From NCBI GenBank assembly GCA_046349975.1, contig JAXMBH010000002.1, positions 128,470 through 192,469 on the forward strand: DNA of 64,000 nucleotides, read 5' to 3'. This document shows, piece by piece, positions 2,609-62,715 of the stretch. The notes under the pieces are model-generated. The model did not search any database, was not told the DNA's origin, and saw only the letters and a list, made by a program, of their open reading frames with translations. Every line of letters starts with the position of its first letter. Within the stretch, counting starts at the first letter, position 1. A program made the position numbers and the translations under genes. This stretch comes from Pirellulales bacterium. Lineage in GTDB: Bacteria; Planctomycetota; Planctomycetia; Pirellulales; Lacipirellulaceae.

Positions 2609-2917
2609 TGAGGGCGTTAGATTATTTGATGCTCTTGAAAACGTCGTGGTAGACGCGTAACCAGCGGCCTCTTACCGCCCGTCGCACAGAACGAATTTCT
2701 AGCGAGTCGACCGCAATTAGCAATCGATTCACCGCGGTCGTGCGCCGACACGAGCACACGTCGTGCCTGAGTTAGGAGTTGGTCTCGAGGGCCGTTCTTT
2801 CCCGATCGCGCGTTGCCATCGACAGCTGCAAAGACGTGTGGCGTTCATAACCACGGCCCCCCTGGGCGGTATGCCGATTGCTATGCCGCGAAAGAGAGAA
2901 GAAGAAAGGATGGAGAC

Positions 2918-38715: not shown

Positions 38716-39096
38716 TCGTCGCTCCAGAGGCGCGTGTAACTGTGGTTGAAGATGTAGTTCCGCAGTTTTTTAGCAAGCGCCGCGCCAAAAAGGCGAGATG
38801 GTCAGCCAAGATTCAGTCCGGTGTATTTAGTGGCGTGTATTCGATCAGCGTGGCTCATTAATGACCAGTCGTGCTGTGGGCCCGCCGACTGAAAGCACGC
38901 ATGTGACGTGGTTTCCGGCAAATCAAGCTGATTTCAAACTGGCCCAATAAGTGCATATGTGGCCAGTCAGGCCTAGCTGGCGGCGGTGCACATTCCGTCT
39001 ATTTCCAGCATTTCTGTACACGGCGGTGCAGTTCATCGCTTCCCCGACGCATGCGTTCAGCGCTGATACCACGGTTTTGACAAGGAGAATGTCGCC

Positions 39097-42000: not shown

Positions 42001-44814
42001 CTCAAGGACAATATCAATGAGATGATTCGTAACCTCAAGGATACGACACTCAAGAACAGCGAGCAGGACTGGCTCAAGACGAACCTCGCGAAGTTCAGCC
42101 GGATGCTCCAAGGCCAGAAGGACTTGCTCACGGTCGGTCGGCTCATTCTGTCGGAACTCGCGCCGGTGGTGAACGCCCAGCAAGCCATGTTCTACCTGCT
42201 CGATACCGGCCAGGAAGCGGCGCAGCTGGTGCTGCTCGCGAGTTATGCGTATCAGCCGCCGCGCACGGTGGGAACGACGATCGCCCTCGGCGAAGGATTG
42301 GTTGGTCAGTGCGCCGTGGAACGCGAGCAGATTCTGCTCACGAACGTGCCGCCGGAATACACGCAAGTGAGTTCTGGATTGGGCGGTGCTCCGCCGCGAA
42401 GCATCATCGTGTTGCCGGTATTGTTCGAAGGACAGGTGAAGGCCGTGCTGGAGCTGGCGTCGTTTGAAACGTTCAGCCCGGCTCACCAGGCCTTGCTCGA
42501 ACAGCTGACGGAAAGTATCGGCATCGTGCTCAACACGATCGCCGCGAACATGCGGACGGAAGACCTGCTCAAGCAGTCGCAGTCGCTGGCCATGGAATTG
42601 CAGAATCGTCAGCAGGAACTGCAACAAACGAACCAGGAACTCAAGGAAAAAGCTCGCTTGCTCGCCCACCAGAACGTCGAAGTGGAGCGCAAGAACCGCG
42701 AAGTCGAGCAAGCGCGGCAGGCGCTCGAAGAGAAGGCAAAGCAACTCGCACTTACCTCGAAGTACAAGTCGGAGTTCCTGGCGAACATGTCGCACGAACT
42801 GCGGACGCCGCTCAACAGCTTGTTGATCCTTTCCGACCAGCTATCGAAGAACCCCGACGGCAACCTTACGCCGCGGCAGACCGAGTACGCCCAGACGATT
42901 CACTCATCCGGCAACGACCTGCTCACGCTCATCAACGATATTCTCGACCTGTCGAAGATCGAATCGGGTACGGTGGTGCTCGATGTCGGCGAGGTGCGGT
43001 TTACGGAGCTCCACGACTTGCTCGAACGCACGTTCCGGCACGTCGCCGAGGCCAAGGGAGTGGACTTCCTGGTGCATCTCGCGCCAGATTTGCCGCTCAA
43101 CATGCAGACCGATAGCAAGCGCGTGCAGCAGGTACTCAAGAATTTGCTCTCGAACGCATTCAAATTCACACATCGCGGCACGGTATCGCTGGACGTGCGG
43201 ATGTCGCATGCCGGTTGGAGTAGCGACAACGATATGCTCAAAAATGCAGATGCTGTGGTGGCCTTCAGCGTCACCGATACCGGCATTGGCATTCCGCCGG
43301 ATAAGCAGCAGAGCATTTTCGAAGCGTTCCAACAGGCCGACGGCAGCACGAGCCGGAAGTACGGCGGCACGGGCCTGGGCCTCGCGATCAGCCGCGAACT
43401 CGCGCGGCTGTTGGGCGGTGAGATCCGCCTGATCAGCATGCCGGGCGCAGGCAGCACATTCACGCTCTATTTGCCGATGTCGTACACATCGTATACCACG
43501 CCCCGGCCCGCGCGGCGGCAGACGATTGCGCCCGTGGCGGCGGCCGAACCCGAGCCGGCGCCATTGCCCGAGTTCGCGAAAGTTGAAGAGCCGGTCACGT
43601 TCAACGAGTTCGACGATGACCGCGATTCGATTCAAGCGAATGATCGGGTGGTGCTGATCGTGGAAAACGATCCGACATTCGCGAAACTCCTGTTGGAAGC
43701 GGCTCGTGAAGGCGGATTCAAGGGGATTGCGACGTCGCGCGGGGCGGCGGCGTTGTCGCTCGCGCACGAGTATCGAATCTCGGCAGTGACGCTCGACATA
43801 TGCCTGCCAGATATCAACGGCTGGCGGGTGCTGCGGCGACTCAAGCAGGATCTCGACACGCGGCACATTCCGGTGTACGTCGTGTCGACCGAAGACGAAC
43901 GCGAAAGTGCCCAGAGCATGGGCGCCGTCGACACGGTGCAGAAGCCGTTGCAAACAAAGGAGACCATGGATGAGCTGTTCGCAGCGATTCGTCGGTTCAT
44001 CGAACGGCCGGTGAAAGAATTGCTGGTTGTGGAGACCGACGGCGAGCGTCGTGAGAAGTTGCTCAATGTGATTGGCAACGGCGATGTGCGGCCGACCGCG
44101 GTGGCCAGCGGCGCTGAAGCCTTAAAAATCCTGGACGAAAAGCAATTTGATTGTGTTGTGTTCGATGTGAATGCGCCGGAGTCGAGTGTCGACGCCGTGA
44201 TCGATCGACTGCACGCCAACCCGCAGCATAGCGACACGCCGCTGGTGATGTACTCCGAAGAACCGCTGCTCCTCGACGAGGCAATGACCGATCGGCTGGC
44301 CCGCTCGACAACGGTGCGGCACGTGCAGTCGCCCGACCGGTTGCTCGACGAAGTGAACTTACTGCTGCATCGACCGACGTCGACGCTCAGCGAGCCGCAG
44401 CGGCAGATTTTGCAGAAGTTGCACGAGGACGACGCGATCCTCAACGGCAAGAAAGTGCTGATTGTCGATGACGATATTCGCAATATCTTCGCCCTCACGA
44501 GCATCCTGGAACGGTATAATATTCATATCTTGTCGGCGGAAACGGGCCGCGATGCCATTCAAATTCTGCAAGACACGCACGACGTGGATGTGGTCTTGAT
44601 GGACATCATGATGCCCGAGTTTGATGGGCTGGATACGACCCGAGCGATTCGCGAGATTCCGCGGTTCAAGGATTTGCCGATCATTGCGGTGACGGCGAAG
44701 GCCATGAAGGGCGACCGCGAGAAGTGCATTGAAGCGGGCGCTTGGGACTATTTATCGAAACCGGTGAACCCGGAGCAGTTGTTGGCAGCGTTGCGTGCTT
44801 GGATACGGCGCTAA
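39097..44814 (+). CDS. soluble hybrid sensor histidine kinase with poly-HAMP array (about 20 HAMP domains), GAF, HisKA/HATPase_c and three receiver domains
   Basis: 1905 aa with AAGGAG 8 nt upstream of the ATG and no TM segment. Nine 92-aa units (...[92 protein letters not shown]...) each contain a canonical and a divergent HAMP. These are followed by a GAF domain ([14 protein letters not shown]...[20 protein letters not shown]) and a coiled coil. The kinase core has an H-box ([17 protein letters not shown]) and a G-box ([23 protein letters not shown]). The three REC domains end with a canonical one (VLIVDDD...[13 protein letters not shown]...K). Confidence 0.9.
39560..42050 (+). repeat. nine tandem 276-bp coding repeats (8 about 88-99% identical, 1 diverged) encoding the poly-HAMP units
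   Basis: The periodicity is visible in the nucleotide sequence. For example, 40150-40290 and 40426-40566 are nearly identical, and the AAGTGACGCGTGTGGCCCG-CGAAGTGGGTAC blocks recur every 276 nt. It also creates many spurious antisense ORFs. Confidence 0.85.
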
Positions 44815-44824
44815 TCTCGCGTGA

Positions 44825-46969
44825 GTGACGATGGGAGATCGGGCGGGCATCCTGCCGCTGCTGCTGAGAGACGATGTGATGAAGTCCAATTGCGAGCCAG
44901 TGAACATCCTGGTGGTTGACGACGTGCCAGAAAAGATTCTGGCCATCGAGGCTGCGCTGGGTGAATTGGGGCAGACACTCGTGAAGGCGAACTCGGGCCG
45001 CGAAGCGCTGCGATGCCTGCTGAAAGATGATTTCGCCGTGATCCTGCTCGATGTCAACATGCCGGAGATGGACGGCTTCGAAACGGCCGCGCTCATTCGT
45101 GAGCGGCGGCGCAGCGAACATACGCCGATCATCTTCATCACGGCCTTCAATGATGATGTGCAGATGGCGAAGGGGTACTCGCTCGGGGCGGTTGATTTCA
45201 TCTCGACGCCAATCGACCCAGACGTGCTGCGCACCAAGGTGAGTGTGTTCGTCGACCTGTTTCAGAAGACGGAGACGATCCGACAACAGGCGGCCCACCG
45301 CGTGCAACTCGCGCGGGAGCAAGCGGCTCGGCAGGTCGCTGAGAAGGCGATGCGGCGTTCCGCACTGCTCGCGGAGGCAAGCCGACTGTTGTCGCGGTCG
45401 CTGGATTTCGACACGACGCTTACCAGTTTGTACCGCACGATTGTGCCGGCGCTCGCCGATGGTTGCCAGCTCGTGCTCTACGACACGAATATGGATATCT
45501 GGTACTCGCACATCAAAACAGGCGAGGAGGAGCACGACGGCGGCAACGCCAGCTCGCACGCGCGCGTGGAGCAAGTCGACCCGACGCTGGCCTCGGTCGT
45601 GAAAAGCGCGGTCGAAAGCGGGCACGCGCAGCCGATTTCGCCGGAGTTCGTGAAGAACGCGCCGAATTTGGGGTCCCGGAAGAATTGGTCGTACGCGGTC
45701 GTGGCGCCGCTCATTGCTCGAGATATGCCGCTGGGGGCCATTGTATGCTGTCTGCAGGGCACCAACCGACAGTTCGAGCCGGCTGACCTCGCACTGATCG
45801 AAAATCTCGCGAGCCGCGCGGGGACGGCGCTCGACAATGCGCAGCTTTTCCAAACGATTCGCGAAGGCGAGCGCCGCAAGGACGAATTCCTGGCGATGCT
45901 CGGTCACGAGCTACGCAATCCACTCGCCGCGATCACCAACGCCGGTGAGCTCACGCGGCTGCTTGATGCCCAGGATCCGTCGTTCCAGGAATCACTCGAG
46001 ATCATTCGGCAGCAAGCGTCGCTCATGAAGCGGCTGGTCGACGACTTGCTCGATGTGTCGCGCATCACGAGCGGTCGCGTGCAGTTGCAGAAATCGCTCG
46101 TGGATGTGTCGGAGATCGTGACGCGCGTGGCGGAGTCGAACGATGTATTGTTCTCTTCGCGCGGTCACACATTGCACCTCAGCACGCCCGAGGAGGATTT
46201 GTTCTTGGAGGCCGATCCGTATCGGCTCGAGCAAATTCTATCGAACTTGCTGGTGAATTCGGCGAAATACACCGACCCCGGCGGCGATATTTGGTTCAGC
46301 GCGGCCCGGGAAGGCGACGATGTGGTCTTCCGTGTGCGCGATACTGGCATAGGCATTGGGCCCGATTTGCTGCCGAATGTGTTTGATCTGTTTGCACAGG
46401 CGAACCGATCGCTGCATCGGGCCGAGGGCGGTTTAGGCATTGGTTTGACGATCGTTCGCGGTCTCACCGAGCTCCACGGCGGCCGCGTGTGGGCGACCAG
46501 CGAAGGCTTTGGCCGAGGCGCTGAATTCGTGATTTCACTGCCTGCCGTCGTGGAAGCAAATAAGCCTGCTGAACCGGAAGAACCGCCGCTGGCCGAAGAG
46601 ACGATTCGGCGGCGGCGTGTGCTGGTAGTCGAAGATCAACCGGCGCTGTCGCATGTGACGGTGGCTTTGCTTAAAAAGTTGGGCCACGAGGTGCGGTCGG
46701 CGGCCGATGGTCCCGAGGCCCTGATGGCTGTGCGGGAGTACAACCCGGAAGTGGTGTTGCTCGATATCGGGTTGCCGGGCATGGATGGATATGAAGTGGC
46801 GCGTTGCGTCCGCAGCGAGCTTGGCGAGGATGCGCCGCTGCTGGTGGCGATGACCGGTTATAGCCAGCACGAGGTGAGCCGGCACGCGCGGCGTGCGGAG
46901 TTCGACCATCACCTGGTGAAGCCGGCTGATATGAGTGCGCTTAAAGAATTGCTCACGCACTCGCGTTGA
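44825..46969 (+). CDS. hybrid histidine kinase: N-terminal receiver, GAF-like linker, HisKA/HATPase_c and C-terminal receiver
   Basis: It has two receiver domains (REC1 NILVVDDVPE...ILLDVNMPEMDG and REC2 VLVVEDQPAL...VLLDIGLPGMDG), an H-box (FLAMLGHELRNPLAAI) and a G-box (GGLGIGLTIVRGLTELHGGRVWA). A possible alternative start is at 44879 (MKSNCEP). Confidence 0.85.
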   Translation: MTMGDRAGILPLLLRDDVMKSNCEPVNILVVDDVPEKILAIEAALGELGQTLVKANSGREALRCLLKDDFAVILLDVNMPEMDGFETAALIRERRRSEHTPIIFITAFNDDVQMAKGYSLGAVDFISTPIDPDVLRTKVSVFVDLFQKTETIRQQAAHRVQLAREQAARQVAEKAMRRSALLAEASRLLSRSLDFDTTLTSLYRTIVPALADGCQLVLYDTNMDIWYSHIKTGEEEHDGGNASSHARVEQVDPTLASVVKSAVESGHAQPISPEFVKNAPNLGSRKNWSYAVVAPLIARDMPLGAIVCCLQGTNRQFEPADLALIENLASRAGTALDNAQLFQTIREGERRKDEFLAMLGHELRNPLAAITNAGELTRLLDAQDPSFQESLEIIRQQASLMKRLVDDLLDVSRITSGRVQLQKSLVDVSEIVTRVAESNDVLFSSRGHTLHLSTPEEDLFLEADPYRLEQILSNLLVNSAKYTDPGGDIWFSAAREGDDVVFRVRDTGIGIGPDLLPNVFDLFAQANRSLHRAEGGLGIGLTIVRGLTELHGGRVWATSEGFGRGAEFVISLPAVVEANKPAEPEEPPLAEETIRRRRVLVVEDQPALSHVTVALLKKLGHEVRSAADGPEALMAVREYNPEVVLLDIGLPGMDGYEVARCVRSELGEDAPLLVAMTGYSQHEVSRHARRAEFDHHLVKPADMSALKELLTHSR

Positions 46970-47203
46970 GCATGTTGGGTTCAAAACGGTTTAATGGTAA
47001 GTGAGGGCTTATTCGTGTGAAGCAATCGTGCCGACGCCGTGGAAGCCGCGGCGGCAAGCGATAGTTGGGACTGCGCAAGGCGTTGCGGCTGCGAAGCGAC
47101 AAAGTAAACGCGGCATCCTTGCAGGCGACTGGGAATACTGGAAACAATTAAGTCATGTAGCTTGATTCGCTCGGGCGAACTCGGCTATCTGGAGGAAAAA
47201 AGC

Positions 47204-48676
47204 ATGTCACGCATTTTGGTAATCGATGACGATCGTTCAGTGCGGCATTTGATCGGTAAGGCATTCGAGGAATCGGATGTCGAAGTAGTGCCGGCAGCCA
47301 CTTCAGATGAAGGCCTGCAGCTGCTCGGCAGCCGGCAGTTCGACGTAGTGCTCCTCGACATTTTATTGCCAGAGTCTTCCGGTCTGGATGTGTTCGAACG
47401 CATTCGGCAGATTGACCCGAAGCTGCCAGTGATCTTCATCACGTCGCTCTCGAGCAGCGATACGGCGATCAAGGCCATGACGCTGGGCGCATTCGATTAC
47501 TTGCTTAAACCGCTCGATTTAGCGCGGATTCGCGACCTGGTGCGGCAAGCGATCGAGATTCGCCGCTTAATGAGCATTCCGGTCGAGATGCCCGGCGCTC
47601 GGAACGGGCGCATGAACGGTGCGGTGACCGAGAATCGTACCGACACGCTCGTGGGCAATAGCCCGCAGATGCAGGAAGTGTACAAGGCGATCGGCCGCGT
47701 GGCGCCGCAAGATGTGACCGTGCTCATTCGTGGCGAGAGCGGCACGGGCAAAGAGCTTGTCGCCCGGGCGCTCTATCAGCATAGCCCGCGTGTGAAGGGC
47801 CAGTTCCTAGCGGTGAACTGCGCGGCGATCCCGGATGCGTTGCTGGAAAGCGAGCTGTTCGGCCACGAGAAAGGGGCCTTCACCGGCGCCGATCAGCGGC
47901 GAATCGGCAAGTTCGAACAATGCTCGGGCGGCACGCTGTTCCTCGATGAAATTGGCGATATGTCGCCGCTCGTGCAGAGCAAGGTGCTGCGGGTGTTGCA
48001 ATCGCAACAGTTTGAACGTGTCGGCGGCAACCAGACGATCAGCACCGATGTGCGCGTCATCGCGGCGACGAACCGCGACCTCGAGAAAATGGTTGAGGAA
48101 GGCGATTTCCGTTCCGACCTCTACTACCGGCTCAGCGGGTTCACGATCCAGCTCGCCCCGTTGCGTGATCGGCCCGAGGACCTGCCGCCGTTGCTCGAAA
48201 ATTATCTGGCACTCTTCAGCAAGGAACTGAGCAAAGATGTGCACGGTTTCTCGCCCGAGGCGATGGACGTGCTGCTCAATTACTCTTGGCCCGGCAACGT
48301 ACGCGAACTGCAAAACGTGCTTAAGCAGACGTTGCTGCGATCCGCCGGGCATGTGGTGATTCCAGATTTCATTCCCGATCGTGTTCGCACGCCGGGCAGC
48401 AGCTCGGCGAGCGATGGCGGCGACTTGCCAGGGACCGACCTTCGGCAGTTCGTCGATGAACGCCTGGAACACGAATCGACGGATTTGTATGCCGAGGCAC
48501 TTGAGTTCATGGAGCGCTACGTGGTGACTCGCGTGCTCCGCGTGTGCGAGGGCAACCAGTCGAAGGCCGCCCGGATGCTCGGCATCACCCGCGGTTGTTT
48601 ACGGAGCAAGGTGCGGGCGCTCAAAGTCTCAATCGACACGCGCGTGCAGGTGGAAGGCGAGCCGGTCGAAGTCTAA
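47204..48676 (+). CDS. sigma-54-dependent response regulator (NtrC family: REC + AAA+ + Fis HTH)
   Basis: The receiver domain reads ILVIDDD...VLLDILLPESSG. The AAA+ domain has a GESGTGKE Walker A motif, a GAFTGA sigma-54 contact motif and an ESELFGHEKGAFTGA-like segment. The C-terminal HTH reads ARMLGITRGCLRSKVRAL. GGAGG lies 8 nt upstream of the chosen ATG. Confidence 0.9.
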   Translation: MSRILVIDDDRSVRHLIGKAFEESDVEVVPAATSDEGLQLLGSRQFDVVLLDILLPESSGLDVFERIRQIDPKLPVIFITSLSSSDTAIKAMTLGAFDYLLKPLDLARIRDLVRQAIEIRRLMSIPVEMPGARNGRMNGAVTENRTDTLVGNSPQMQEVYKAIGRVAPQDVTVLIRGESGTGKELVARALYQHSPRVKGQFLAVNCAAIPDALLESELFGHEKGAFTGADQRRIGKFEQCSGGTLFLDEIGDMSPLVQSKVLRVLQSQQFERVGGNQTISTDVRVIAATNRDLEKMVEEGDFRSDLYYRLSGFTIQLAPLRDRPEDLPPLLENYLALFSKELSKDVHGFSPEAMDVLLNYSWPGNVRELQNVLKQTLLRSAGHVVIPDFIPDRVRTPGSSSASDGGDLPGTDLRQFVDERLEHESTDLYAEALEFMERYVVTRVLRVCEGNQSKAARMLGITRGCLRSKVRALKVSIDTRVQVEGEPVEV

Positions 48677-48925: not shown

Positions 48926-49297
48926 TCAAGCCGTCACACTATTGCCCACATTGCTGCGAATCGCTGCAAGTAGCTGCTGCAATTCCTGCTCGAGCTCGAT
49001 AAACTGGGCATCCACATGTTCGAGTTTTGCGTGGTGGCCGGCGTCTTCAATTTGCTGAGCGGCCTGCCCTGCCCTTTCGCCGCCGCAGCCAAGCACGAGC
49101 CCTTTCAGGGCGTGCGCCTTCGCGCGAATGCTTGCCGCGTCCCTCCGTTCCACTGCCTGCTTCAGTTCCTCGGCGAGTGGTGGCGCATCATCCAACAGGA
49201 TGGCCGCCATCTCACGGAAAAGTTGTTCATCGCCACCAAAGCGGGTTAGAGTCGCCTCAATGTTGAGAATCCTTGCAGTCAACGCACCATCTCTCAT
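48926..49297 (-). CDS. Hpt (histidine phosphotransfer) domain protein
   Basis: 123 aa. It has the Hpt phosphoacceptor region AKAHALKGLVLGCGGERAGQAA in a four-helix-bundle-like context. Confidence 0.7.
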   Translation of the reverse strand: MRDGALTARILNIEATLTRFGGDEQLFREMAAILLDDAPPLAEELKQAVERRDAASIRAKAHALKGLVLGCGGERAGQAAQQIEDAGHHAKLEHVDAQFIELEQELQQLLAAIRSNVGNSVTA

Positions 49298-49651: not shown

Positions 49652-49978
49652 CTATTTCGAAGCGTTCTGTTTTCGAGTACGGGCAGCCTTTCTTGCCGAG
49701 GCCCGTCGGGCGGCCTTTGGCCGGGCGGCCGCTGCTGCACCGCCTTTCTTGCCACCAGTACGCGATGGCACCTTGTTTTGTTCCTTGCCGCGACCGGAAC
49801 CCCCCGGTTTCTTGCCGCCATGGTCGCTGGCATTCACCGTCGCCCAGGCCCGCCGCTCCGCTTCTTTCTCCGACAAGCCGCGGCTTTCGTAGCCCTCTTC
49901 GATATGCTGCGCCTTGCGTTTTTGCTTGTCCGTATATTTCGATTTTTCGCCTCGCGGCATGACTCCCTCCCTGGCCAT
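49652..49978 (-). CDS. small Lys/Arg/Gly-rich disordered protein with conserved N-terminal PRGEKSKYTDKQKRKAQHIEEGYE...RAWATVN motif (stress-protein-like)
   Basis: 108 aa with a very basic, low-complexity C-terminus. The N-terminal about 50 aa appear to be a conserved small-protein motif seen in other bacteria. It is preceded by a consensus sigma-54 promoter. Confidence 0.5.
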   Translation of the reverse strand: MAREGVMPRGEKSKYTDKQKRKAQHIEEGYESRGLSEKEAERRAWATVNASDHGGKKPGGSGRGKEQNKVPSRTGGKKGGAAAAARPKAARRASARKAARTRKQNASK

Positions 49979-50073
49979 TTTCGGCCGGCCGATGGATGGT
50001 TATTGCAGCGCCGCCCGGAGCGTCTAAATTGACCGCCGCCAGACAACACTTTATGCAAGTTGGCAGGTGGATT

Positions 50074-50089
50074 AGCAAGAACCGTGCCA
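50074..50089 (-). promoter_or_regulatory. sigma-54 (-24/-12) promoter TGGCACggttcTTGCT directing transcription of the 49978 gene
   Basis: The reverse complement of 50074-50089 is TGGCAC-N5-TTGCT, a perfect match to TGGCAC-N5-TTGCW with GG-N10-GC spacing. It lies about 95 nt upstream of the ATG at 49978. Confidence 0.55.
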
Positions 50090-50281
50090 CCCCAAACTTT
50101 TTGTCGGATAGGTTACGCTGCAGGCGCAAATGTGCTTGCTTTCCCACCAGGTTAGAGCATGGCTCGGATGATGCGGCATTGTTCAATTGACGCCGAACGA
50201 CCAAGTCGGCGCACCGGTAACCGCCCTCGGCCTCAAGGCCGAATGCCGCTGCGTTTCTATAGTGGACGACGAATTGACTAG

Positions 50282-50298
50282 TGGCATACGACGTGCTT
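50282..50298 (+). promoter_or_regulatory. weaker sigma-54-like promoter TGGCATacgacgtGCTT upstream of the YflT-like gene
   Basis: GG-N10-GC spacing is satisfied. The -24 element matches in 5 of 6 positions, while the -12 element is degenerate (GTGCTT). It lies about 50 nt upstream of the ATG at 50349. Confidence 0.3.
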
Positions 50299-50348
50299 GC
50301 TCTCTTTGACGCATCTTGAGTTAAGGTTACGAGAATTTTGGCCCCATA

Positions 50349-50915
50349 ATGAAGGCGGCAACAATGGCAAGCAATACAACCACGGTGAAACTAAACGAAC
50401 ACGCAAGCGAGGAGCGGCCGATTGAAGTCGGCGTGTTTGATGCGATCGATGCCGCCCGCCAGGCCGTGCACGGCCTGCGAGCGGCCGGATTTGGCATCGG
50501 GCAAATCACGGTCGTGTGCTCCGACGAAACAAAGGAACGTTATTTTAGCGAGTTCGAACATCAAGATCCCGCGGGCACTCACACGCCGACGGCTTCGATC
50601 GCGGGTGGAACGATAGGGGCAGTCGTTGGCGGTTTGGCCGTTGTGGCATCCGCCGTGGCTACCGGTAGTTTGGCGCTGTGGGCGGCCGGACCGATTTCAG
50701 CGTGGGCTGGCGGCGTGGCTGGCGGCCTCGTGGGCGCAATGATGACACGCGGCGTCGAGAAAGAGTTGGCAAACTACTATCAACAAGCCGTGATGAACGG
50801 TCAGATTTTGGTGGCGGCCGAGGATCACAGCGAGGCGAGCGCCAGCCGTCTGGCAGAGGCCGCGCGCATTCTTTCCCAGGCGGGCGCAAAGCCCCTGCCG
50901 TTGCGAGAAGGCTAG
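50349..50915 (+). CDS. YflT/general-stress-protein-17M-like domain protein with Gly-zipper membrane segment
   Basis: The N-terminal IEVGVFDAIDAARQAVHGLRAAGFGIGQITVV matches the YflT-type domain. It is followed by a Gly/Ala-rich hydrophobic segment (GGTIGAVVGGLAVVASAVATGSLALWAAG). 188 aa, with a possible alternative start at 50364. Confidence 0.55.
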   Translation: MKAATMASNTTTVKLNEHASEERPIEVGVFDAIDAARQAVHGLRAAGFGIGQITVVCSDETKERYFSEFEHQDPAGTHTPTASIAGGTIGAVVGGLAVVASAVATGSLALWAAGPISAWAGGVAGGLVGAMMTRGVEKELANYYQQAVMNGQILVAAEDHSEASASRLAEAARILSQAGAKPLPLREG

Positions 50916-51186
50916 GCGGCAGTGCGGCATTCTTGATGGGTGCGCAACCACATTGGTCCGAAGTACGTCATAAGTGCGGCTGCCACCAGTGCTTGCATCG
51001 CAAAGTTTTAGCTTCGCTTTCGCACAACGATTACGCGCAAGCCGTACAACGCGTGTTCGTGCGACGTAGTCGACCACTCCGGCACATGAAATGCTTTAGC
51101 CAACGTAACCGAAAATAACGACTTTGTTTTCCTGGATTGTTTTTCTTTGCCATCCTCGCATAGGCGCTGGAGGCACGTTGCACACT

Positions 51187-51489
51187 ATGAAGATTAACCA
51201 CCGCTTCACCGCTCTGACCTTGCTCGGCACCAGTTTGTTCATTGAACTCGCTGGGTGCTCATCGAAGCCCGTCGGGCAGTCGACAACCACTCGCGGCGTA
51301 GCAGAACACGATACGGCGGCTCCGGTCACGCCGCCGCCGGTGACAACACCCGCGCCTGCACCGTCGACCGACGCGACGAGCGATCGGCCGGGTGACCGCA
51401 AAGTGGATGTGCAGGTCGGCGGACCGGCCGGAGTCAACGTCCAAGTCGGACCAAAGACTGGCGCCAACAACGGTACAACGGCGCAATAA
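51187..51489 (+). CDS. small lipoprotein (Pro/Thr-rich)
   Basis: Begins MKINHRFTALTLLGTSLFIELAGCSS, a signal peptide with a LAGC lipobox. The mature part is low-complexity and Pro/Thr/Val-rich. The tracked ORF begins at a TTG at 51124. Confidence 0.5.
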   Translation: MKINHRFTALTLLGTSLFIELAGCSSKPVGQSTTTRGVAEHDTAAPVTPPPVTTPAPAPSTDATSDRPGDRKVDVQVGGPAGVNVQVGPKTGANNGTTAQ

Positions 51490-51631
51490 CTAACGTCGAC
51501 TGCAAATTGTGTTGTGACCTCGAGCGAATGAAGGCACTTCGCGGTGCGATTCGGGTTAGCTCCTGAGAAGTGGAGTCGCTTCGCTCAACTGGATGTTTTT
51601 CGTTTCCGCGTTTTTGAAAAGGAGAAGTTGT

Positions 51632-52348
51632 ATGATATTGAATCAACGTAGCGTTGCGTTAGCGGCGACGGTCGTGGCCGCCCTGCTCGTCTTCGCGACC
51701 AGCGATGCCCAAGCGCGTCACCGCCGTGGCGGCAGCTGCGGGTCCTGCGGTGGCGAGTCTTCCGGCTCCTGGGGTTCCTCAGGATCCTGGGGCGGTTCCT
51801 CATGTGGCTCGTTCGGCGGTCGGTGGCGCCGTCACCATGGTAGCTCCGGGAGCTGTGGCAGTTCCGGCGGCAGCAGCTGTGGCTGCGAAAGCGAGGCCAG
51901 CTGCAGCTCATGCCAATCCAGCTGCAACACTTGTGAGTCGAACTGCAACACATGTGAGTCGAGTTGCAATACCTGCGGCACTAGCGAAAGCAGCTGCAGC
52001 ACTTGCTCTGGTAGTTCAGACGCCGACGACGATGACCACAAAGAGTCTCACGAAGCCAATTATCATCAAGATCAGAGTGTCGATAGCCATCGCACGATGA
52101 CCGGAAGCGCCGAGATGCACGACAACGGTGCGAACTCGCAGAACCGTAATCGCGAAAATGACGACATGCGCGCTCCAGACCGCGACGATCGTGCCGCCAG
52201 TCATTCCAGCAGCTCAACCGACACAAAGTCGGATAACAGTAGCGACAAGTCGTCGAAAGCAGAGGGCCAAAGCAACGATAGCGACAATAAGGAGAGCAAA
52301 TCCGACTCATCGAGCGAGAATAAATCAGAAACAGGCGCTCCGAAGTAA
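51632..52348 (+). CDS. secreted Cys/Ser/Gly-rich low-complexity protein with CxxC and CNTCES repeats and acidic Ser/Asp-rich tail
   Basis: AAAGGAG lies 8 nt upstream of the ATG at 51632. A signal peptide (MILNQRSVALAATVVAALLVFATSDAQA) is followed by RHRRGGSCGSCGG...CGSFGG...CGSSGGSSCGCESEASCSSCQSSCNTCESNCNTCESSCNTCGTSESSCSTC. The remainder is Asp/Ser/Asn/Lys-rich. Confidence 0.55.
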   Translation: MILNQRSVALAATVVAALLVFATSDAQARHRRGGSCGSCGGESSGSWGSSGSWGGSSCGSFGGRWRRHHGSSGSCGSSGGSSCGCESEASCSSCQSSCNTCESNCNTCESSCNTCGTSESSCSTCSGSSDADDDDHKESHEANYHQDQSVDSHRTMTGSAEMHDNGANSQNRNRENDDMRAPDRDDRAASHSSSSTDTKSDNSSDKSSKAEGQSNDSDNKESKSDSSSENKSETGAPK

Positions 52349-52537
52349 ATCGGACGCGTGTTCGCCAAGTTACGCGAAAGAGGCTGGTCAGGCGCTGGTC
52401 GCCAGGCCAGCCTCTTGGCGTTGCTTCGGCACGTCGCGGGGCGCCGAGCGATCGCGCATTTAGAAATACGCGCGCAGAAAAACGGCCACGGCGGCTGAGC
52501 AGCCGCGCGTGGCCTCGATCGATGCTCGGGTGTGCGG

Positions 52538-53050
52538 CTAACGACTACTCACGGATGCCGGATTGACCGAACTCTCGGCGATTTGTGTCAGCTGTTTGTC
52601 GGTCGATTTTTCTTCGTCGAGTGTCTGTTCGAGCAACTCGGCCGCGTAAGAATCGGCAATGCGCTGCGCGAATGTGCGAGCCGTACCATAGGCTGCAATT
52701 TCATAATGTTCGACACGCTGCGCCGCCGCAATCAGGGCAGCGTCCAAAACGTCTTTGTCGCCTTCAGCGCTCAACACGTTGCTGCCTTCTTTGATGAGCC
52801 CACTCATTGCGGCGCACGTCTCTCGTTCGGCATCGAGCCCGCGGTGTTCGAAGATCGACTCTAGCCGCTGGGCATGCTTTTCAGTTTGCGTAAGGTGGCT
52901 TTGAAATGCGCGTTTGAGCGCCGGGTTGGTCGCTTTGTCAGCCATTTTCGGAAGCGCGTCAATTAACTGCTGCTCGGCGTCGTACAGGTCCTTCAGCTCG
53001 TGAACGAACAGTTCTTCCAAGGAGTTGAACTCCTCACTCATAAAAAGTCC
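52538..53050 (-). CDS. ferritin-like YciE/YciF (DUF892) stress protein
   Basis: The N-terminus reads LEELFVHELKDLYDAEQQLIDALPKMADKATNPALKRAFQSHLTQTEKHAQRLE, and the protein has a four-helix ferritin-like pattern. The start was chosen at MGLFM, which has GGAGG 6 nt upstream. Confidence 0.8.
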   Translation of the reverse strand, partial: GLFMSEEFNSLEELFVHELKDLYDAEQQLIDALPKMADKATNPALKRAFQSHLTQTEKHAQRLESIFEHRGLDAERETCAAMSGLIKEGSNVLSAEGDKDVLDAALIAAAQRVEHYEIAAYGTARTFAQRIADSYAAELLEQTLDEEKSTDKQLTQIAESSVNPASVSSR

Positions 53051-53263
53051 CATCGCTGACCTCCAATACCTTATTGCTATTGCGTGGCTGCGTACATTCA
53101 CAGGTCGCAGTACTACCCGGCCTAAACCCGGACGCATAGGTCATGCCAATTGCCCTCGCGCTTGCCACGGCGAAAAATCGTTGAAGACCGATACCGATCG
53201 AGGCGGGAGCAGCGTGCGACGTTGGGTGGCCAGTACTTGGTCGGGCCGTCGCGAGTTTAGAGA

Positions 53264-53363
53264 TACACGGGGCGGTGGCATCGGCTGCAGAGCGTTGCGG
53301 CCTCTGCGGAGAAAGCTCTCTCTTGCCGGATTGCAGATCTTGGCGGGAACACCGCCCCGTGTA
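53264..53363. repeat. 100-nt element bounded by a perfect 14-bp inverted repeat (TACACGGGGCGGTG ... CACCGCCCCGTGTA) inside a 900-nt gene-free region
   Basis: Read directly from the sequence. The interior also contains sub-palindromes (CTGCAGAG/CTCTGCGG and GATTGCAGATC). It may be a structured ncRNA or a MITE-like element. Confidence 0.4.
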
Positions 53364-53949
53364 TGGGCCTTGCTTGAAAATCGGCGAGGTCGCACTTAGC
53401 GACCGACGTGATTTGGTCTCGCGGTTTGAGAACCCGCGATGGTATAGGCGGATTTAGCAAGTGATGTGCCGCATAGCGGCCACCGTCCGAAATTAGTCGA
53501 AAGTGCTACGCTTTCACGTCAAAAGGGCCGTATCGCGCTCCGCATTCGATGCCGACTGGATGGTCCGACAGTGACAGCGTTGAGTTAAATTCGGCCAATC
53601 TGAGCGGGGATCAATCATTTGGATCAATGCAGCACGGTGATGCGTGCCTATCGAGCCGCCACCCAACGAGCGATGTTGTTCAAAACAACACCAGACCTTG
53701 GTTTCAAATCGGCCTTGGAAACGGTCGCATCCGGACCGAGATCGCAAAATATACCTCCTGCTGCCGAGAGTCGCCGGCAGGGAGGCTAGGACAGGTTCGC
53801 CTTTCGACTGCCTTGTGGCAACGCCGCGCGTGACCGCACGATCAAATCTGACCCCACTCTGCCCGTACAACATGACGGGTATGCGGTTTGCGTTACAGGC
53901 ACTTTGTTGTGAGATGAACTCAGTCTAAATCGAAAATTCCCGCGAGGAA

Positions 53950-54630
53950 TTGAGCTTTGAGAGGATACCTACTGCCATGTTTTCTGATGCCATGATACTC
54001 GTCGTTGGGGCTGATCCGCAGGACCGCGAAATCATTCTTCAAGCACTCGGCGAGACATGTCACGTGGTGGCGGCTCAAAATACGGAAGACGCGCTAGCGC
54101 ACATCTCGGATCGGGTTCAGCTCGTTATCTGTGAGAGCAACGGCGCGAGCTTTCGGGGCGAGGACCTGCTGCGGCGATGGAAGTCGACGCGGTCGGGCAC
54201 GCCGTTTCTCATGCTGATCGGTGAGCATGATGTCAACGGCGCGATCAACGCGATGAAGACTGGCGCCGATGATTGCATCGTGAAGCCGATTGCAGTTGGC
54301 GCGTTGCGTGACGCTGCAAAGGCGCTCCTGGCAAATGCTGTTGATCGGCCGGTGAACGGTTCGAACGACCCGTCGTCTGGACGCCGACGTTCAAATATCG
54401 ATATTCCGCCGGACACCTCGCTCGAGGATTTGGAGCGCGCGGCGGTCGAGCAGGCTCTCGTTCAACACCATGGCAATCGCACGCATGCGGCTCGCACCCT
54501 GGGAATTTCGGTGCGCACGCTGCAGCGGAAGTTGAAAGCATGGGGAATGCCGATCGTCTCGTTCCCTAGCTCGCCCTCAGCCGCAAATTTTCTACGATCA
54601 ACTCCATCGTTTCGGGCGCACGTTCATTAA
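53950..54630 (+). CDS. atypical response-regulator-like protein (receiver with Glu at phosphoacceptor position) + Fis-type HTH
   Basis: The REC-like N-terminus has acidic residues in the beta1 loop (LVVGADPQD) and a conserved Lys (CIVKP), but the position expected for the phosphoacceptor Asp reads LVICESNG, with Glu. The C-terminal HTH reads HGNRTHAARTLGISVRTLQRKLK. A possible alternative start is at 53977. Confidence 0.6.
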   Translation: MSFERIPTAMFSDAMILVVGADPQDREIILQALGETCHVVAAQNTEDALAHISDRVQLVICESNGASFRGEDLLRRWKSTRSGTPFLMLIGEHDVNGAINAMKTGADDCIVKPIAVGALRDAAKALLANAVDRPVNGSNDPSSGRRRSNIDIPPDTSLEDLERAAVEQALVQHHGNRTHAARTLGISVRTLQRKLKAWGMPIVSFPSSPSAANFLRSTPSFRAHVH

Positions 54631-54751
54631 GACCCTGTAGCGCGTCCCTTATTCCTTGGCGGCGGCGGAGCGATGCCTTTAGTTCGTTCTGCAGCCGCCT
54701 TTTTTATCGGTTTGTGAGCGGCCGAACGACACCCGTATGGGACGTCGCAAC

Positions 54752-54785
54752 AAAAAAAGCCCGACTTGCGCCGGGCTTCTTTATT
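54752..54785. terminator. bidirectional Rho-independent terminator (AGCCCG-acttgcgc-CGGGCT hairpin flanked by A7 upstream and a T-rich tail downstream)
   Basis: The plus-strand sequence is AAAAAAAGCCCGACTTGCGCCGGGCTTCTTTATT. It serves the plus-strand regulator gene ending at 54630 and the minus-strand DUF1328 gene ending at about 54802. On the minus strand the hairpin is followed by TTTTTTTG. Confidence 0.6.
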
Positions 54786-54801
54786 AGACGTATTTTCGGT
54801 G

Positions 54802-54972
54802 TTATGCGACCGGCGGCCGCAATCGCGGCACCACCAGGCTAATCAAGAACAGCACGAGAAACACGAAGAACAATACTTGTGCGATGTAGGTTGCTGTACT
54901 AGCAGCTGCACCGAAGCCAAATGCGGCCGCGATCAACGCGATCACTAAAAACGTGAGTGCCCAGCTGAGCAT
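54802..54972 (-). CDS. DUF1328/UPF0391 small membrane protein (56 aa)
   Basis: Below the 60-aa cutoff, so not in the ORF track. Reverse-strand translation gives [56 protein letters not shown], the classic UPF0391 pattern. Coordinates are approximate to 1-2 nt. Confidence 0.6.
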
Positions 54973-55056
54973 GTTGCACCCCTTCCCTTTCTGTAGTATT
55001 GGGTGGAATTTACGCTGCAGACGCAGCGATCAGGTGAAAAACGGTATTGATTGAGT

Positions 55057-55074
55057 AAGCAAGCTGCGTGCCGA
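55057..55074 (-). promoter_or_regulatory. sigma-54-like promoter CGGCACgcagcTTGCT upstream of the DUF1328 gene
   Basis: The reverse complement has GG-N10-GC spacing, a -24 element matching in 5 of 6 positions and a -12 TTGCT. It lies about 85 nt upstream of the ATG at about 54972. Confidence 0.4.
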
Positions 55075-55328
55075 AACGGCGCGTTCGGCGTGCGGTTGAT
55101 CGGCGCACAAAACTCCGCAAGTACAGATGCTTTAGCAGGCCGCAGCTAAGAATGACTAGTCTGCGGTGGCGAAAACGGTCAAGAAACAACCAGCACGGTG
55201 TCATTGCGACACGCATGCTCGCTCGATGTGTCGGTACATCGATTGCTGGCCGATTGATAAAGGATTCGTACTGAGGCACGGCGGCCCGGAACGATTTTCG
55301 ACATTCAGTCGGCAATGCGAGGTGATCT

Positions 55329-55580
55329 ATGCGGCTAGTCCTGATTGTGCTTGTTTTGATCGTCGTGGGGTCGCTGGTCGGCTGGATTTCGTTCCGTCGC
55401 GATGCCGACCATGCGAGCATCAATCTGGAAACCAACGCGATTCGTCAGGATACGAGCAAGGTTATGCAATCTGGCGCGGAATTGCTGCATCGCGCCGGCG
55501 ACAAGATGGAAGACGAGTCCGTGAACCAACAAAAACAGGCGCCAGTCACGCGGCGTGAACCGGCGCCTGTAACGCGCTAA
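55329..55580 (+). CDS. small membrane-anchored hypothetical protein
   Basis: 83 aa. An N-terminal hydrophobic helix (MRLVLIVLVLIVVGSLVGWI) is followed by a GAGGTG ribosome-binding site 6 nt upstream. Confidence 0.4.
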   Translation: MRLVLIVLVLIVVGSLVGWISFRRDADHASINLETNAIRQDTSKVMQSGAELLHRAGDKMEDESVNQQKQAPVTRREPAPVTR

Positions 55581-55593
55581 GAATTCGGCAAGT

Positions 55594-55797
55594 CTAGCGA
55601 GGCAGTGCGGTTTCGAACGAGCGCACCTGCCGCTCTGCTTCATCTCGGGCGAGCCCGTACTTCTTCTCCACGGCGCCGAGGAGTTGATCTCGCTGTCCTT
55701 CGATGCGGTCGAGATCATCGTCCGTCAATTCGCCCCACTTTTCACGGATCTTACCGCGAATTTGTTTCCAGTTGGCTTTAATGATGTCGCCATTCAT
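55594..55797 (-). CDS. CsbD-family general stress protein
   Basis: The sequence MNGDIIKANWKQIRGKIREKWGELTDDDLDRIEGQRDQLLGAVEKKYGLARDEAERQV matches the CsbD pattern (KGKxKExxGxLTDDDLD...GKxDQLxGKIQERYG). The start was chosen at M5 of the tracked ORF, which has GGAGG 5 nt upstream. Confidence 0.7.
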   Translation of the reverse strand: MNGDIIKANWKQIRGKIREKWGELTDDDLDRIEGQRDQLLGAVEKKYGLARDEAERQVRSFETALPR

Positions 55798-55837
55798 AAG
55801 TGCCTCCATGTGTTTGTTGGACCGAGAACCTTCAGAT

Positions 55838-56038
55838 TTAAAGGTCCTTCAACGGGCGATCGATATCGACTCCCCATGCTACGTGTCGGGGATGCCAATC
55901 GCTCTCGCTCACCCACTGGTCAAACCGCCGCAATGCTTCGAGCCGGTCGCCGAGAGCTTCGAAGAGATCGCGATCAAGTCGGCGATCCCGGTCGAGGGCG
56001 TTGAGATATTCAATTTCATTGCGCGTTGCTAACGTCAT
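55838..56038 (-). CDS. hypothetical small protein (66 aa)
   Basis: The start was chosen at MTLATRNEIEYLNALDRDRRLDRDLFEALGDRLEALRRFDQ..., which has GAGAGGAGG 6 nt upstream. It lies directly downstream of a consensus sigma-54 promoter and upstream of the csbD-like gene on the same strand. Confidence 0.45.
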   Translation of the reverse strand: MTLATRNEIEYLNALDRDRRLDRDLFEALGDRLEALRRFDQWVSESDWHPRHVAWGVDIDRPLKDL

Positions 56039-56098
56039 ACATGGCCTCCTCTCGAAAAGGACGTTTTGCTGCGAGTGGCGTGATGCCGTAAGGCCGGG

Positions 56099-56115
56099 TC
56101 GCAATCGATGTGCCA
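56099..56115 (-). promoter_or_regulatory. sigma-54 promoter TGGCACatcgaTTGCGA upstream of the 56038/csbD-like minus-strand gene pair
   Basis: The reverse complement of 56099-56115 is TGGCAC-N5-TTGCG, with consensus -24 and -12 elements and correct spacing. It lies about 60 nt upstream of the ATG at 56038. Confidence 0.5.
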
Positions 56116-56306: not shown

Positions 56307-57425
56307 CTATTGGTCCGTGCTGATTTCGCTGCCAGCGCGCGTGACGAGCCGGGCGAAGTCGCGGATGTTGATATCAGCGTTCAGCCAGCGCACTGAACCA
56401 TCGCCCATGCAGAAGTTTGCGCCGCCGGGGTGAAAGCCGTATGGCTCGCCTGTGCCCACGGAGTTGTAATAGGGGTGCGGGAATGTGGCGCCGATTTCAA
56501 TGCCGTTCGTGCAGTTGACTGCGCAGGTGCCGACGTCGGTGGCGCCGTCGCCGCTCGTACCGTCGATGCTGATATCGCTGGCTGGGCGGCACCAGCCGCC
56601 GCCGTTGACCCGCTTCGCGGGAAACGTTTCGATCTGGCGGCCGCCGCGATACAGGTACGGCCGGCCGCCCGACTCGGCGTACGCGATTGTCTTTGACAGG
56701 CCGTCGGTGACCTGGTTAATTTTGGCCGGCACGTTGTAGGCCAACAAGCCCAGACCTGGCGAACCGGCGGCCGGCGGCATCGTGGCATTCGGCGGCGCGG
56801 CTTCATCAACCAGGTTCGACGCCGAGCTCGGATTCGCCGGATCCGGACGCAACCGCTTGTCGACAAAGATCGTGGGCGAGTAATCGGTCACCGCGCCGGT
56901 GTCGGGCGTCCAGGGGCTGATTTCCGGCACGCCGTCGAGGCGATTTGGTTCGGGCACCGAGGGGCATTGAAGAATGGCAATCTTCGTGTTCACGATGTCC
57001 TTGTTCCGCGCGCCCTTCGCATTCACGGTGTTGTCGGACCAGTTCTTGGCTTGATCATATTGATCGAACTTCGAACCTTCTTCGAAGAACGGCAACATCA
57101 GCGTGAAGCCGGCGATACGCGGAGCGTTCGTCAGTCCCGGCGGGCGGATGCTCGACGGAAACGTCTTCTTCGTGTCGACGTAATTGTGCATCGAGATGCC
57201 GAGCTGCCGGATATTGTTCTGGCACGAGCTGCGGCGGGCCGCTTCGCGGGCGGCTTGAATGGCGGGCAGCAGAAGCGCAACCAAGATGCCGATGATCGCG
57301 ATCACGACGAGCAACTCGACGAGCGTGAAACCACTGCGCGATGCGGCGGCGTTGCTGTGTGGCGGAGCGTTCACGCTTGCCGGCGCGCCTCCGATGCTAC
57401 GAATACTGATGGAATGGCGTGTCAT
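56307..57425 (-). CDS. DUF1559 protein with prepilin-type N-terminal cleavage/methylation domain and H-X9-DG motif (Planctomycete pseudopilin-like)
   Basis: The N-terminus [51 protein letters not shown] is the class III signal peptide/pilin-like helix. The C-terminal [15 protein letters not shown] gives the H-X9-DG motif. Confidence 0.85.
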
Positions 57426-62469: not shown

Positions 62470-62534
62470 CGCAATAACTCCCGAAACTTGCGCCCAAGAT
62501 TGGTGGCCCGAAGTGCAGCGGTGCTGCGATGCAC

Positions 62535-62556
62535 TGGCAACGCAATTGCAATGCCA
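62535..62556. promoter_or_regulatory. quasi-palindromic sigma-54 promoter-like element TGGCAAcgcaaTTGCAATGCCA between sbp and the divergent sigma-54 activator gene
   Basis: The minus strand reads TGGCAT-tgcaa-TTGCG, a consensus -24/-12 about 70 nt upstream of the sbp start. The plus strand reads TGGCAA-cgcaa-TTGCA, pointing at the activator gene. Confidence 0.5.
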
Positions 62557-62715
62557 AGCAGTATGCACCCTCAGGATTCAGCTAAAATCCGCAGAAACGC
62601 GCTGCTAGCCGTGGCTTATGCTGGCGTTGCAGAAGGTGTTTCCGTTAAATATAATAGTAAGCTCCATCATATGTGATTGTTGACGCGGAAATATCACAGA
62701 GGTGATCAACTTAGT

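Follow-up and report, generated by a model that had tools for sequence, protein, structure and literature searches.

Which sigma factor switches on genes of the general stress type in a planctomycete? The question is raised by a 6.5-kb island (49652-56115) in a 64,000-nucleotide (nt) stretch of a Pirellulales genome (family Lacipirellulaceae; contig JAXMBH010000002.1, positions 128,470 to 192,469), referred to here as the window and numbered from its first letter. The familiar general stress regulons are those of RpoS in Escherichia coli (with yciGFE, yjbJ/CsbD, osmC and elaB), of SigB in Bacillus subtilis (with csbD and yflT) and of EcfG in the alphaproteobacteria. A -24/-12 element of the sigma-54 type precedes nearly all transcription units of the island, that of the receiver-helix-turn-helix (REC-HTH) regulator F included, and the island occurs together with the genes of a hybrid histidine kinase (HK2), an NtrC-type activator and a histidine phosphotransfer (Hpt) protein in at least seven other Pirellulales contigs. 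The reading that we favour, and hold to be reasonably probable, is that of a conserved Pirellulales island of sigma-54-promoted stress-type genes, activated by the adjacent NtrC-type protein via a phosphorelay. Stress genes of these bacteria are probably switched on via sigma-54 rather than via an RpoS- or SigB-like factor. The island consists of ten short genes on both strands:

49652-49960, minus strand: gene A, a basic protein of 102 amino acids (aa) whose N-terminal 45 aa are conserved and whose tail is rich in Gly and Lys
50349-50915, plus strand: gene B, 188 aa, YflT/GSP17-like, with a hydrophobic middle part rich in Gly and Ala
51187-51489, plus strand: gene C, a lipoprotein with an LAGC lipobox
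51632-52348, plus strand: gene D, a secreted Cys/Ser-rich protein with a signal peptide
51187..52348, plus strand: genes C and D together, a probable operon
52538-53053, minus strand: gene E, a DUF892 (YciE/YciF ferritin-like) protein of 171 aa (Pfam, E=9e-57)
53977-54630, plus strand: gene F, a regulator with a receiver and a Fis-type HTH and without an AAA+ domain (Pfam)
54802-54972, minus strand: gene G, a DUF1328 small membrane protein (Pfam, E=2e-13)
55329-55580, plus strand: gene H, an 83-aa protein of no family with one N-terminal membrane helix
55594-55809, minus strand: gene I, CsbD (Pfam, E=6e-19)
55838-56038, minus strand: gene J, a 66-aa protein of no family

Three of the assignments made in the initial annotation (CsbD, DUF892 and DUF1328) are firm by Pfam, and the basic protein, the lipoprotein and the secreted protein that it listed with them are real open reading frames (ORFs). 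Its YflT/GSP17M-like gene stands as a similarity only: B matches Pfam YflT weakly, in the N-terminal part, and below the gathering cut-off (21.4 bits against 26.2, E=4e-4). With this sub-cut-off match included, and with OsmC elsewhere in the window, the gene content typical of a general stress regulon (CsbD, YciE/YciF, YflT, DUF1328, OsmC) is present. No Pfam family was found for genes A, C, D, H and J. For gene A, searches of Pfam, NCBIfam and PDB gave no match; its product shares 100% identity with P0001, listed as hypothetical in a Pirellulales metagenome-assembled genome (MAG), and has at least 8000 relatives in the homologue search. Gene E has GGAGG 7 nt ahead of its ATG at 53053; the nearest relatives of the encoded DUF892 protein are from Lacipirellulaceae, and an exact-protein look-up gave no match for it.

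Elements were accepted as sigma-54-type when GG and GC were exactly 10 nt apart (GG-N10-GC) in a YTGGCACG-N4-TTGCW-like context. Ten sites of the window have this exact spacing:

50074..50089, minus strand: P_A, TGGCACGGTTCTTGCT, a perfect consensus, 113 nt ahead of the gene A ATG (49960)
50282..50297, plus strand: P_B, TGGCATACGACGTGCT, weaker, 51 nt ahead of gene B
51080..51095, plus strand: P_C, candidate CGGCACATGAAATGCT, 91 nt ahead of gene C
53133..53148, minus strand: P_E1, TGGCATGACCTATGCG, 79 nt ahead of gene E
53456..53471, minus strand: P_E2, near-consensus CGGCACATCACTTGCT, about 400 nt 5' of gene E
53877..53892, plus strand: P_F, non-canonical GGGTATGCGGTTTGCG, 84 nt ahead of the gene F ATG
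55058..55073, minus strand: P_G, CGGCACGCAGCTTGCT, 85 nt ahead of gene G
55232..55247, plus strand: P_H, CGGTACATCGATTGCT, 81 nt ahead of gene H and divergent from P_G
56100..56115, minus strand: P_J, TGGCACATCGATTGCG, 61 nt ahead of gene J, the predicted promoter of a J-CsbD operon
38772..38787, minus strand: P_K, TGGCGCGGCGCTTGCT, 56 nt ahead of gene K, outside the island on the far side of the phosphorelay

Nine of the ten are co-oriented with the gene that follows and lie 51-113 nt 5' of its start codon. Five of them (P_A, P_G, P_J, P_B and P_E1) had been named in the initial annotation, and all five have the GG-N10-GC geometry on the correct strand and in the correct orientation; its tally was, however, too low by P_C, P_H, P_E2, P_F and P_K. 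There is no -24/-12 element in the gap between C and D. P_C probably serves gene D too. D directly follows C, and CsbD directly follows J; each pair is probably co-transcribed. The gap between J and CsbD is 28 nt, and the pair is also present in contigs L163 and L165 and in the JGI contig 3300056388.

The sites were scored with a position weight matrix (PWM), and a plain-consensus scan that is independent of the PWM weights was run as well. Across the whole window, matches with at most one mismatch are in mild excess (6 vs 2.4 in shuffles), and four of the six fall inside the 6.5-kb island, against an expectation of 0.25 (Poisson P about 1e-4). When the 150 nt upstream of each gene were scored on the coding strand, seven of the ten island genes reached 10.5 or more, compared with 3 of the 37 other genes of the window (Mann-Whitney p = 0.0045 for the upstream scores of island vs other genes). 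This threshold is reached by 2.2% of random 150-nt windows, giving a binomial P of about 3e-10 for seven of ten if the genes are independent, and by 3 of 92 planctomycete control genes (at least 200 aa, free upstream regions, 18 loci). Alignment of 40 sites from the window and its relatives gave an invariant GG and GC, a core of YGGCAY-N5-TTGCW, and flanks without similarity to each other. As the flanks are unrelated, the sites did not arise by copying of one repeat, and a repeat-element origin of the motifs was rejected.

Promoters of other classes were looked for in the same spacers. There was no match to the sigma-70 consensus in the island spacers, in a scan that used the E. coli consensus and may not fit planctomycetes, and no EcfG-type match either there or in the rest of the window. 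A dedicated sigma factor of the sigma-70 family, by which a general stress regulon is defined, is therefore not what the spacers point to, as they carry sigma-54-type elements.

Conservation was assessed in 80 DUF892 loci from species-representative genomes and in seven loci fetched via homologues of protein A. These loci were picked through stress genes and are a biased sample; since this is so, and since the window covers 64 kb, a genome-wide role is beyond what they can judge. Orthologues of A, B, DUF892, DUF1328, H, J-CsbD and F with an element ahead of them were found in L002, L003, L016, L043, L046 and L161-L166, in spacers that have diverged. Gene A has the motif in seven contigs (L002, L046, L161, L163, L164, L165 and L166; scores 13.2-17.6). 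The counterpart of P_B in L165 is near-identical (TGGCACACGACGTGCG) and at the syntenic position; orthologues of gene B are present in L003 and L043, with a YflT-like gene at the corresponding place in the JGI contig, and the YflT genes of L043 and L165 have the motif. DUF1328 genes are preceded by it in L003, L016, L163 and L165. P_H has counterparts in L003 (GGGTACGGCGATTGCT), L163 and L165 which are likewise divergent and keep its unusual GGTAC or GGCAT form, the H proteins of the window and L003 being 38% identical. A counterpart of P_J, CGGCACGCGGATTGCT, lies ahead of the J-CsbD pair in L163 and L165 (score 15.5), and CsbD genes have the motif ahead of them in L046 and L043. The footprint of P_F is a 15-nt block, GGTATGCGGTTTGCG, identical between the window and L163 in a spacer that is otherwise unalignable. 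P_C had no orthologue for comparison, and the HK2, activator and Hpt genes of the relatives are without the motif.

The motif precedes DUF892 genes in 9 of 18 Planctomycetota loci, mostly 60-120 nt upstream, and in 3 of 8 from Verrucomicrobiota. Among the other phyla the count is 3 of 54 (Acidobacteriota 1/18, Gemmatimonadota 2/13, Bacteroidota 0/7, others 0/16). As it is frequent in the first two phyla and rare elsewhere, these counts suggest that the motif ahead of DUF892 is a trait of the Planctomycetes-Verrucomicrobia-Chlamydiae (PVC) lineage.

A replicate of the island is seen in L002, where seven elements, all within 7 kb of the activator gene, precede genes for DUF883/ElaB-like, protein A, holin-like membrane, stand-alone Fis-HTH, YgaP-like and DUF892 proteins. 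The stand-alone Fis-HTH protein of this Lacipirellulaceae MAG (5880-6351, plus strand; 125 aa, behind element AGGCACGCAGATTGCT) shares 46% identity with the DNA-binding domain of the activator encoded beside it and has no equivalent in the window; it may act as a competitor or feedback inhibitor of the activator.

Gene A and a giant GH94 gene of the cyclic beta-1,2-glucan synthase-like kind are arranged divergently in three other contigs, L161 (7789-8001), L164 (7803-7874) and L166. The GH94 gene has a strong -24/-12 element of its own in L161 (14.4) and L164 (16.2), and in L164 the divergent elements are 40 nt apart. In L016 (7576-7905), genes for Ku and a bacterial topoisomerase IB are divergent behind sigma-54-type elements scoring 13.0 and 12.3, and the locus further contains a DUF1328 gene and two DUF892 genes with the motif.

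The candidate activator and its partners lie directly beside the island, with gene K and OsmC beyond them:

48926..49297, minus strand: Hpt phosphotransfer protein (Pfam)
47162..48676, plus strand: the activator, of NtrC type, with Response_reg, Sigma54_activat (E=4.5e-74), AAA_lid_14 and HTH_8 domains; likely ATG at 47204
44825..46969, plus strand: HK2, a REC-GAF-HisKA-HATPase-REC hybrid kinase (Pfam), conserved partner of the activator
39097..44814, plus strand: HK1, 1905 aa, an AskA / group-III type kinase with a poly-HAMP array of about 9 di-HAMP modules followed by GAF-HK-REC-REC
38233-38715, minus strand: gene K, 160 aa, of no family, behind P_K
37562-37987, minus strand: OsmC, downstream of K on the same strand and without a -24/-12 element of its own

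The activator has the architecture of an NtrC-type enhancer-binding protein, with a receiver, an AAA+ domain containing GAFTGA and a C-terminal Fis-type HTH; it carries the motifs GESGTGKE and HEKGAFTGA, and its sigma-54 interaction domain is intact. It scores below every NCBIfam equivalog cut-off and is therefore not NtrC, AtoC or ZraR proper. The order HK2, activator, Hpt, A is shared by L002 (activator 61% identical), L161/L162, L165, L166 and the JGI contig. HK2 of the same architecture adjoins the activator in L161/162 and the JGI contig, the Hpt gene separates A from the activator gene in L002, L161, L163, L165 and the JGI contig, and in L046 and L081 the activator is beside A or CsbD. 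The full order (CsbD-J, H, DUF1328, receiver-HTH, YflT, A, Hpt, activator, HK2) is common to the JGI contig, L163 and L165. A metagenome scan with the activator protein returned 80 loci, most of them with generic NtrC paralogues (~40% identity) and only L081, L082, L084 and L085 close. In the ENA ERZ250395xx contigs (L163 9069-10548, L165 9076-10556, and L166) the activator and kinase genes are in short fragments, the activator gene being split in L163; the gene calls there should be read cautiously, and the fragmentation probably reflects long-read frameshift errors and not pseudogenes.

HK1 heads the operon in this genome and adjoins the relay here only, not in the other syntenic contigs. 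Pfam finds in it 9 HAMP and 9 HAMP_2 domains, GAF, HisKA, HATPase_c and 2 receivers, and a repeat at 39547-41718 (276-bp unit, 7.9 copies, 85% matches) encodes the di-HAMP modules. Its N-terminal 290 aa match PDB 9TRK, a poly-HAMP fragment of Myxococcus xanthus AskA, with 417 bits (E=6e-124) and about three quarters identity by eye, and no membrane segment was seen when the sequence was judged by eye, as for a soluble poly-HAMP hybrid kinase. By these sequence features HK1 belongs, as a planctomycete representative, to the AskA / fungal group-III-like class of kinases.

The mechanism that we propose would comprise about eight units, namely A, the YflT-like gene, the lipoprotein with the Cys/Ser-rich gene, the DUF892 gene, the DUF1328 gene, H, and J with CsbD, each behind its own sigma-54 promoter, and as an additional unit the regulator gene F, again with its own. 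A sigma-54 promoter gives no transcription before its closed complex has been remodelled by an enhancer-binding protein that hydrolyses ATP, and the neighbouring NtrC-type protein is the most likely activator. Phosphate would pass from HK2 to Hpt and on to the receiver of the activator, with HK1 placed on top of the relay in this genome. The sigma-54 dependence of the island genes is well supported in silico; in vivo it is inferred. Sigma-54 may stand in place of a general stress sigma factor.

The initial annotation had suggested that a sigma-54 circuit, perhaps the neighbouring phosphorelay, serves in this organism instead of the general stress sigma factor. The synteny of activator, Hpt and hybrid kinase with the island is in line with a part for this relay, but a common activator site was not found. 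Searches for dyads, k-mers, an expectation-maximisation motif, conserved blocks in orthologous spacers and gapped words against shuffles gave no shared upstream site and returned, beyond the partner promoters, just A-rich or sub-threshold words. The word AAGCA-N7-TTGC occurs twice in the window, both times 5' of island promoters, and is absent from most orthologous spacers; it is a lead only. As no shared enhancer site was found among promoters or orthologues, it is synteny from which the activator is assigned. The missing site weighs against the proposed mechanism, and several further points do so too. Elements P_B, P_C, P_E1, P_H and P_F (GGTAT at -24) are weak, and the PWM weights follow the consensus of Barrios et al. 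only approximately, as do the scores. A good site is missing ahead of some syntenic orthologues (those of DUF892 and YflT in L003 and that of A in L016), and motif-bearing DUF892 genes of L004, L016, L043, L050, L059 and L067 have no activator gene within 10 kb. The stress label of the genes is taken from the regulons of distant model organisms. Finally, rpoN is not in the 64-kb window; the planctomycete Rhodopirellula baltica does encode it (PMC2754498).

Three other explanations have to be weighed. The -24/-12 matches might be fortuitous or non-functional, with true promoters of the sigma-70 family or of the extracytoplasmic function (ECF) kind that consensus scans do not recognise. The mild excess over the whole window would fit this, as would the doubtful suitability of an E. 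coli sigma-70 consensus for planctomycetes. However, the clustering of the sites, their strand, their distance to start codons and their persistence in at least ten other contigs whose spacers have diverged are very hard to obtain by chance, and this explanation is highly improbable. The promoters could also be genuine and served by one or more unlinked enhancer-binding proteins, with HK2, activator and Hpt regulating something else and their adjacency being historical. This would account for the lack of a common activator-binding site, for motif-bearing orthologues far from any activator gene, and for gene A of L164, which keeps a strong site though an IS66 element has replaced its neighbourhood. 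Bacterial enhancer-binding proteins are, however, usually encoded beside at least one target, and the adjacency of activator, Hpt and A is kept at only 55-62% activator identity and across rearrangements of the other flank (GH94 vs YflT). We consider an unlinked activator improbable.

Alternatively, sigma-54 and the phosphorelay might form a general stress response with a genome-wide regulon equivalent to those of RpoS, SigB or EcfG, the island being its most visible part. In line with this, motif-bearing DUF892, CsbD, DUF883/ElaB-like, YgaP-like, Ku and topoisomerase-IB genes are scattered with no activator gene nearby, the DUF892 motif has the phylum distribution given above (9/18 and 3/8 vs 3/54), and EcfG-type promoters are absent from the window. 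A published cross-phylum scan describes sigma-54 predictions in Planctomycetia as enriched for UspA, MscS, chaperones and proteases (PMC12316311). On the other hand, 64 kb of the genome are visible, the comparison loci were chosen through stress genes, and OsmC of the window has no element of its own. Planctomycetes moreover have dozens of ECF sigma factors, some of them stress-induced, and rpoN of R. baltica is not heat-induced and is down-regulated by salt (PMC2754498). A regulon of this breadth is unlikely on present evidence. Equally doubtful is its extension to the Planctomycetota, perhaps the wider PVC group, in which the niche of RpoS, SigB or EcfG would be filled by sigma-54 and a cytoplasmic group-III-like kinase-Hpt-NtrC-type relay, acting directly at the -24/-12 promoters of dispersed CsbD, DUF892, DUF1328, ElaB-like, Ku and cyclic-glucan genes, with an input logic parallel to the fungal high-osmolarity glycerol (HOG) pathway.

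The favoured reading, a sigma-54-promoted island under its adjacent activator, can be set beside known systems. In the NtrBC, ZraSR, AtoSC and PspF regulons, as here, a REC-AAA+(GAFTGA)-Fis HTH activator is encoded beside a sensor kinase and -24/-12 promoters, the activator gene itself lacking an element. Unlike in those regulons, the predicted targets are small general-stress-type proteins in about eight units and not nitrogen, metal or phage-shock genes, the input would be a multistep relay with a separate Hpt and hybrid kinases, and the enhancer sequence was not found. With the RpoS, SigB and EcfG regulons the island shares protein families (CsbD, DUF892, YflT-like, DUF1328, OsmC here, DUF883 in L002) that are clustered and apparently co-regulated. 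Those regulons, in contrast, depend on sigma-70-family factors controlled by proteolysis or partner switching, whereas the island carries sigma-54-type elements and would have an all-or-none, ATP-dependent activator switch. Because sigma-54-type elements here replace a sigma-70-family factor, the island is not a member of these systems, and it may work like a general stress regulon without being one of them.

A receiver-containing enhancer-binding protein and sigma-54 reportedly also head a stress or adaptation response in the Rrp2-RpoN-RpoS pathway of Borrelia burgdorferi (PMC1976401, PMC4014564). There, sigma-54 acts on rpoS and RpoS on the effectors, whereas the effector genes of the island carry -24/-12 elements themselves. 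The relay resembles the fungal group III kinase-Ypd1-Ssk1 (HOG) pathway and the M. xanthus AskA/AskB/AskC system in that a second hybrid kinase, an Hpt and a response regulator come after the AskA-related HK1; its output would differ, being a sigma-54 activator and not a MAP kinase cascade or MrpC. The fungal group III class feeds an osmotic stress pathway (PMC13446029).

Sigma-54 promoters of planctomycetes have been surveyed in silico by Studholme and Dixon in 2004 for Pirellula sp. strain 1 and in PLoS One in 2025 (PMC12316311). Such surveys are reported to place some of their -24/-12 predictions in Planctomycetia ahead of stress-related genes, namely those for thioredoxin, CsrA, UspA, MscS and chaperones. 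CsbD, DUF892, DUF1328, YflT and this syntenic island with its activator are not mentioned in the accessible text and supplements of the planctomycete surveys, and targeted literature searches gave no report that links RpoN/sigma-54 to CsbD, to DUF892 or yciF, or to general stress in Planctomycetota. A 2025 review of a century of work on Planctomycetota leaves sigma factors, two-component systems and stress responses all unmentioned. The organisation of general stress responses outside Proteobacteria, Firmicutes and Actinobacteria is largely obscure, and the island offers a concrete regulon hypothesis that can be tested cheaply. If it is true, marker proteins of RpoS and SigB can sit under an activator-gated, zero-background class of promoter, and the orphan families A, H, J and K gain a first regulatory context. 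In microarrays of R. baltica, RB4433 ('Ferritin and Dps', 162 aa, pI 4.3) was induced by heat, cold and salt. By size and charge it is a candidate DUF892 protein, and if so this would be the first expression evidence for the family in a planctomycete.

Horizontal acquisition of the island was considered and rejected, since its GC content is only slightly lower than that of its surroundings (0.55-0.59 vs about 0.60) and relatives are syntenic.

Regulator F is syntenic in L003, L163, L165, L166 and the JGI contig. In alignments Glu takes the phospho-acceptor position of its receiver and the acidic Mg pocket is degenerate, in the window as in L163 (5263-5931, minus strand), and the distant orthologues of L003 and L166 retain Asp. 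F scores 27 bits against NCBIfam ActR_PrrA, for which the cut-off is 250, and does not fall into the ActR/PrrA/RegA type. Its receiver is likely a phosphorylation-independent pseudo-receiver. With low confidence, as F has Glu at the acceptor position and lies behind a conserved sigma-54-type element, it could be an abundance-controlled (dose-dependent) second-tier or feedback regulator.

Two further features belong to the island and its edge:

54757..54778: a hairpin flanked by runs of A and of T where genes F and G converge, likely a bidirectional terminator for both
56307-57425: a DUF1559 protein, just beyond the island

The region behind P_E2 (53240-53471, minus strand) contains a structure of ~110 nt with 15-bp perfect arms, ATACACGGGGCGGTG ... 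CACCGCCCCGTGTAT, and the stretch 53262-53370 folds stably (z = -4.3). A scan of the island against Rfam with E up to 1 gave only noise for it, and it is not conserved in the fetched loci. P_E2 may be a second, distal promoter of E with a long DUF892 leader, or a small-RNA promoter.

OsmC may be read through from the predicted sigma-54-type promoter of K, 245 nt upstream. An Rrf2-family regulator gene (37013-37441, plus strand) is convergent on OsmC. At the other end of the window, a sigma-54-like site at 2753-2768 (minus strand; AGGCACGACGTGTGCT, score 13) lies 144 nt ahead of a MalQ-like 4-alpha-glucanotransferase gene (452-2608, minus strand), which is divergent from a CBM48/alpha-amylase (TreZ- or GlgX-like) gene (2813-4741, plus strand). 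This site may link glucan or trehalose metabolism to the sigma-54 promoter class. Given OsmC behind K, the MalQ/TreZ-like site, the motif-bearing GH94 genes of L161 and L164, the type of kinase and the gene content, the input to the relay could be water, osmotic or stationary-phase stress.

A near-palindrome at 62535-62556, TGGCAACGCAATTGCAATGCCA, matches the -24/-12 consensus on both strands inside the 5' end of a sulfate-binding-protein-like ORF (61318-62568, minus strand), and is better explained as an operator or by chance than as a promoter. At 33336-33602 (minus strand) there is a c-di-AMP (ydaO-type) riboswitch (Rfam RF00379, 39.5 bits, barely over the gathering score), directly 5' of a gene for a 744-aa SPFH/Band_7 membrane protein (30884-33118, minus strand). 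To our knowledge, this is an unusual target for a c-di-AMP riboswitch.

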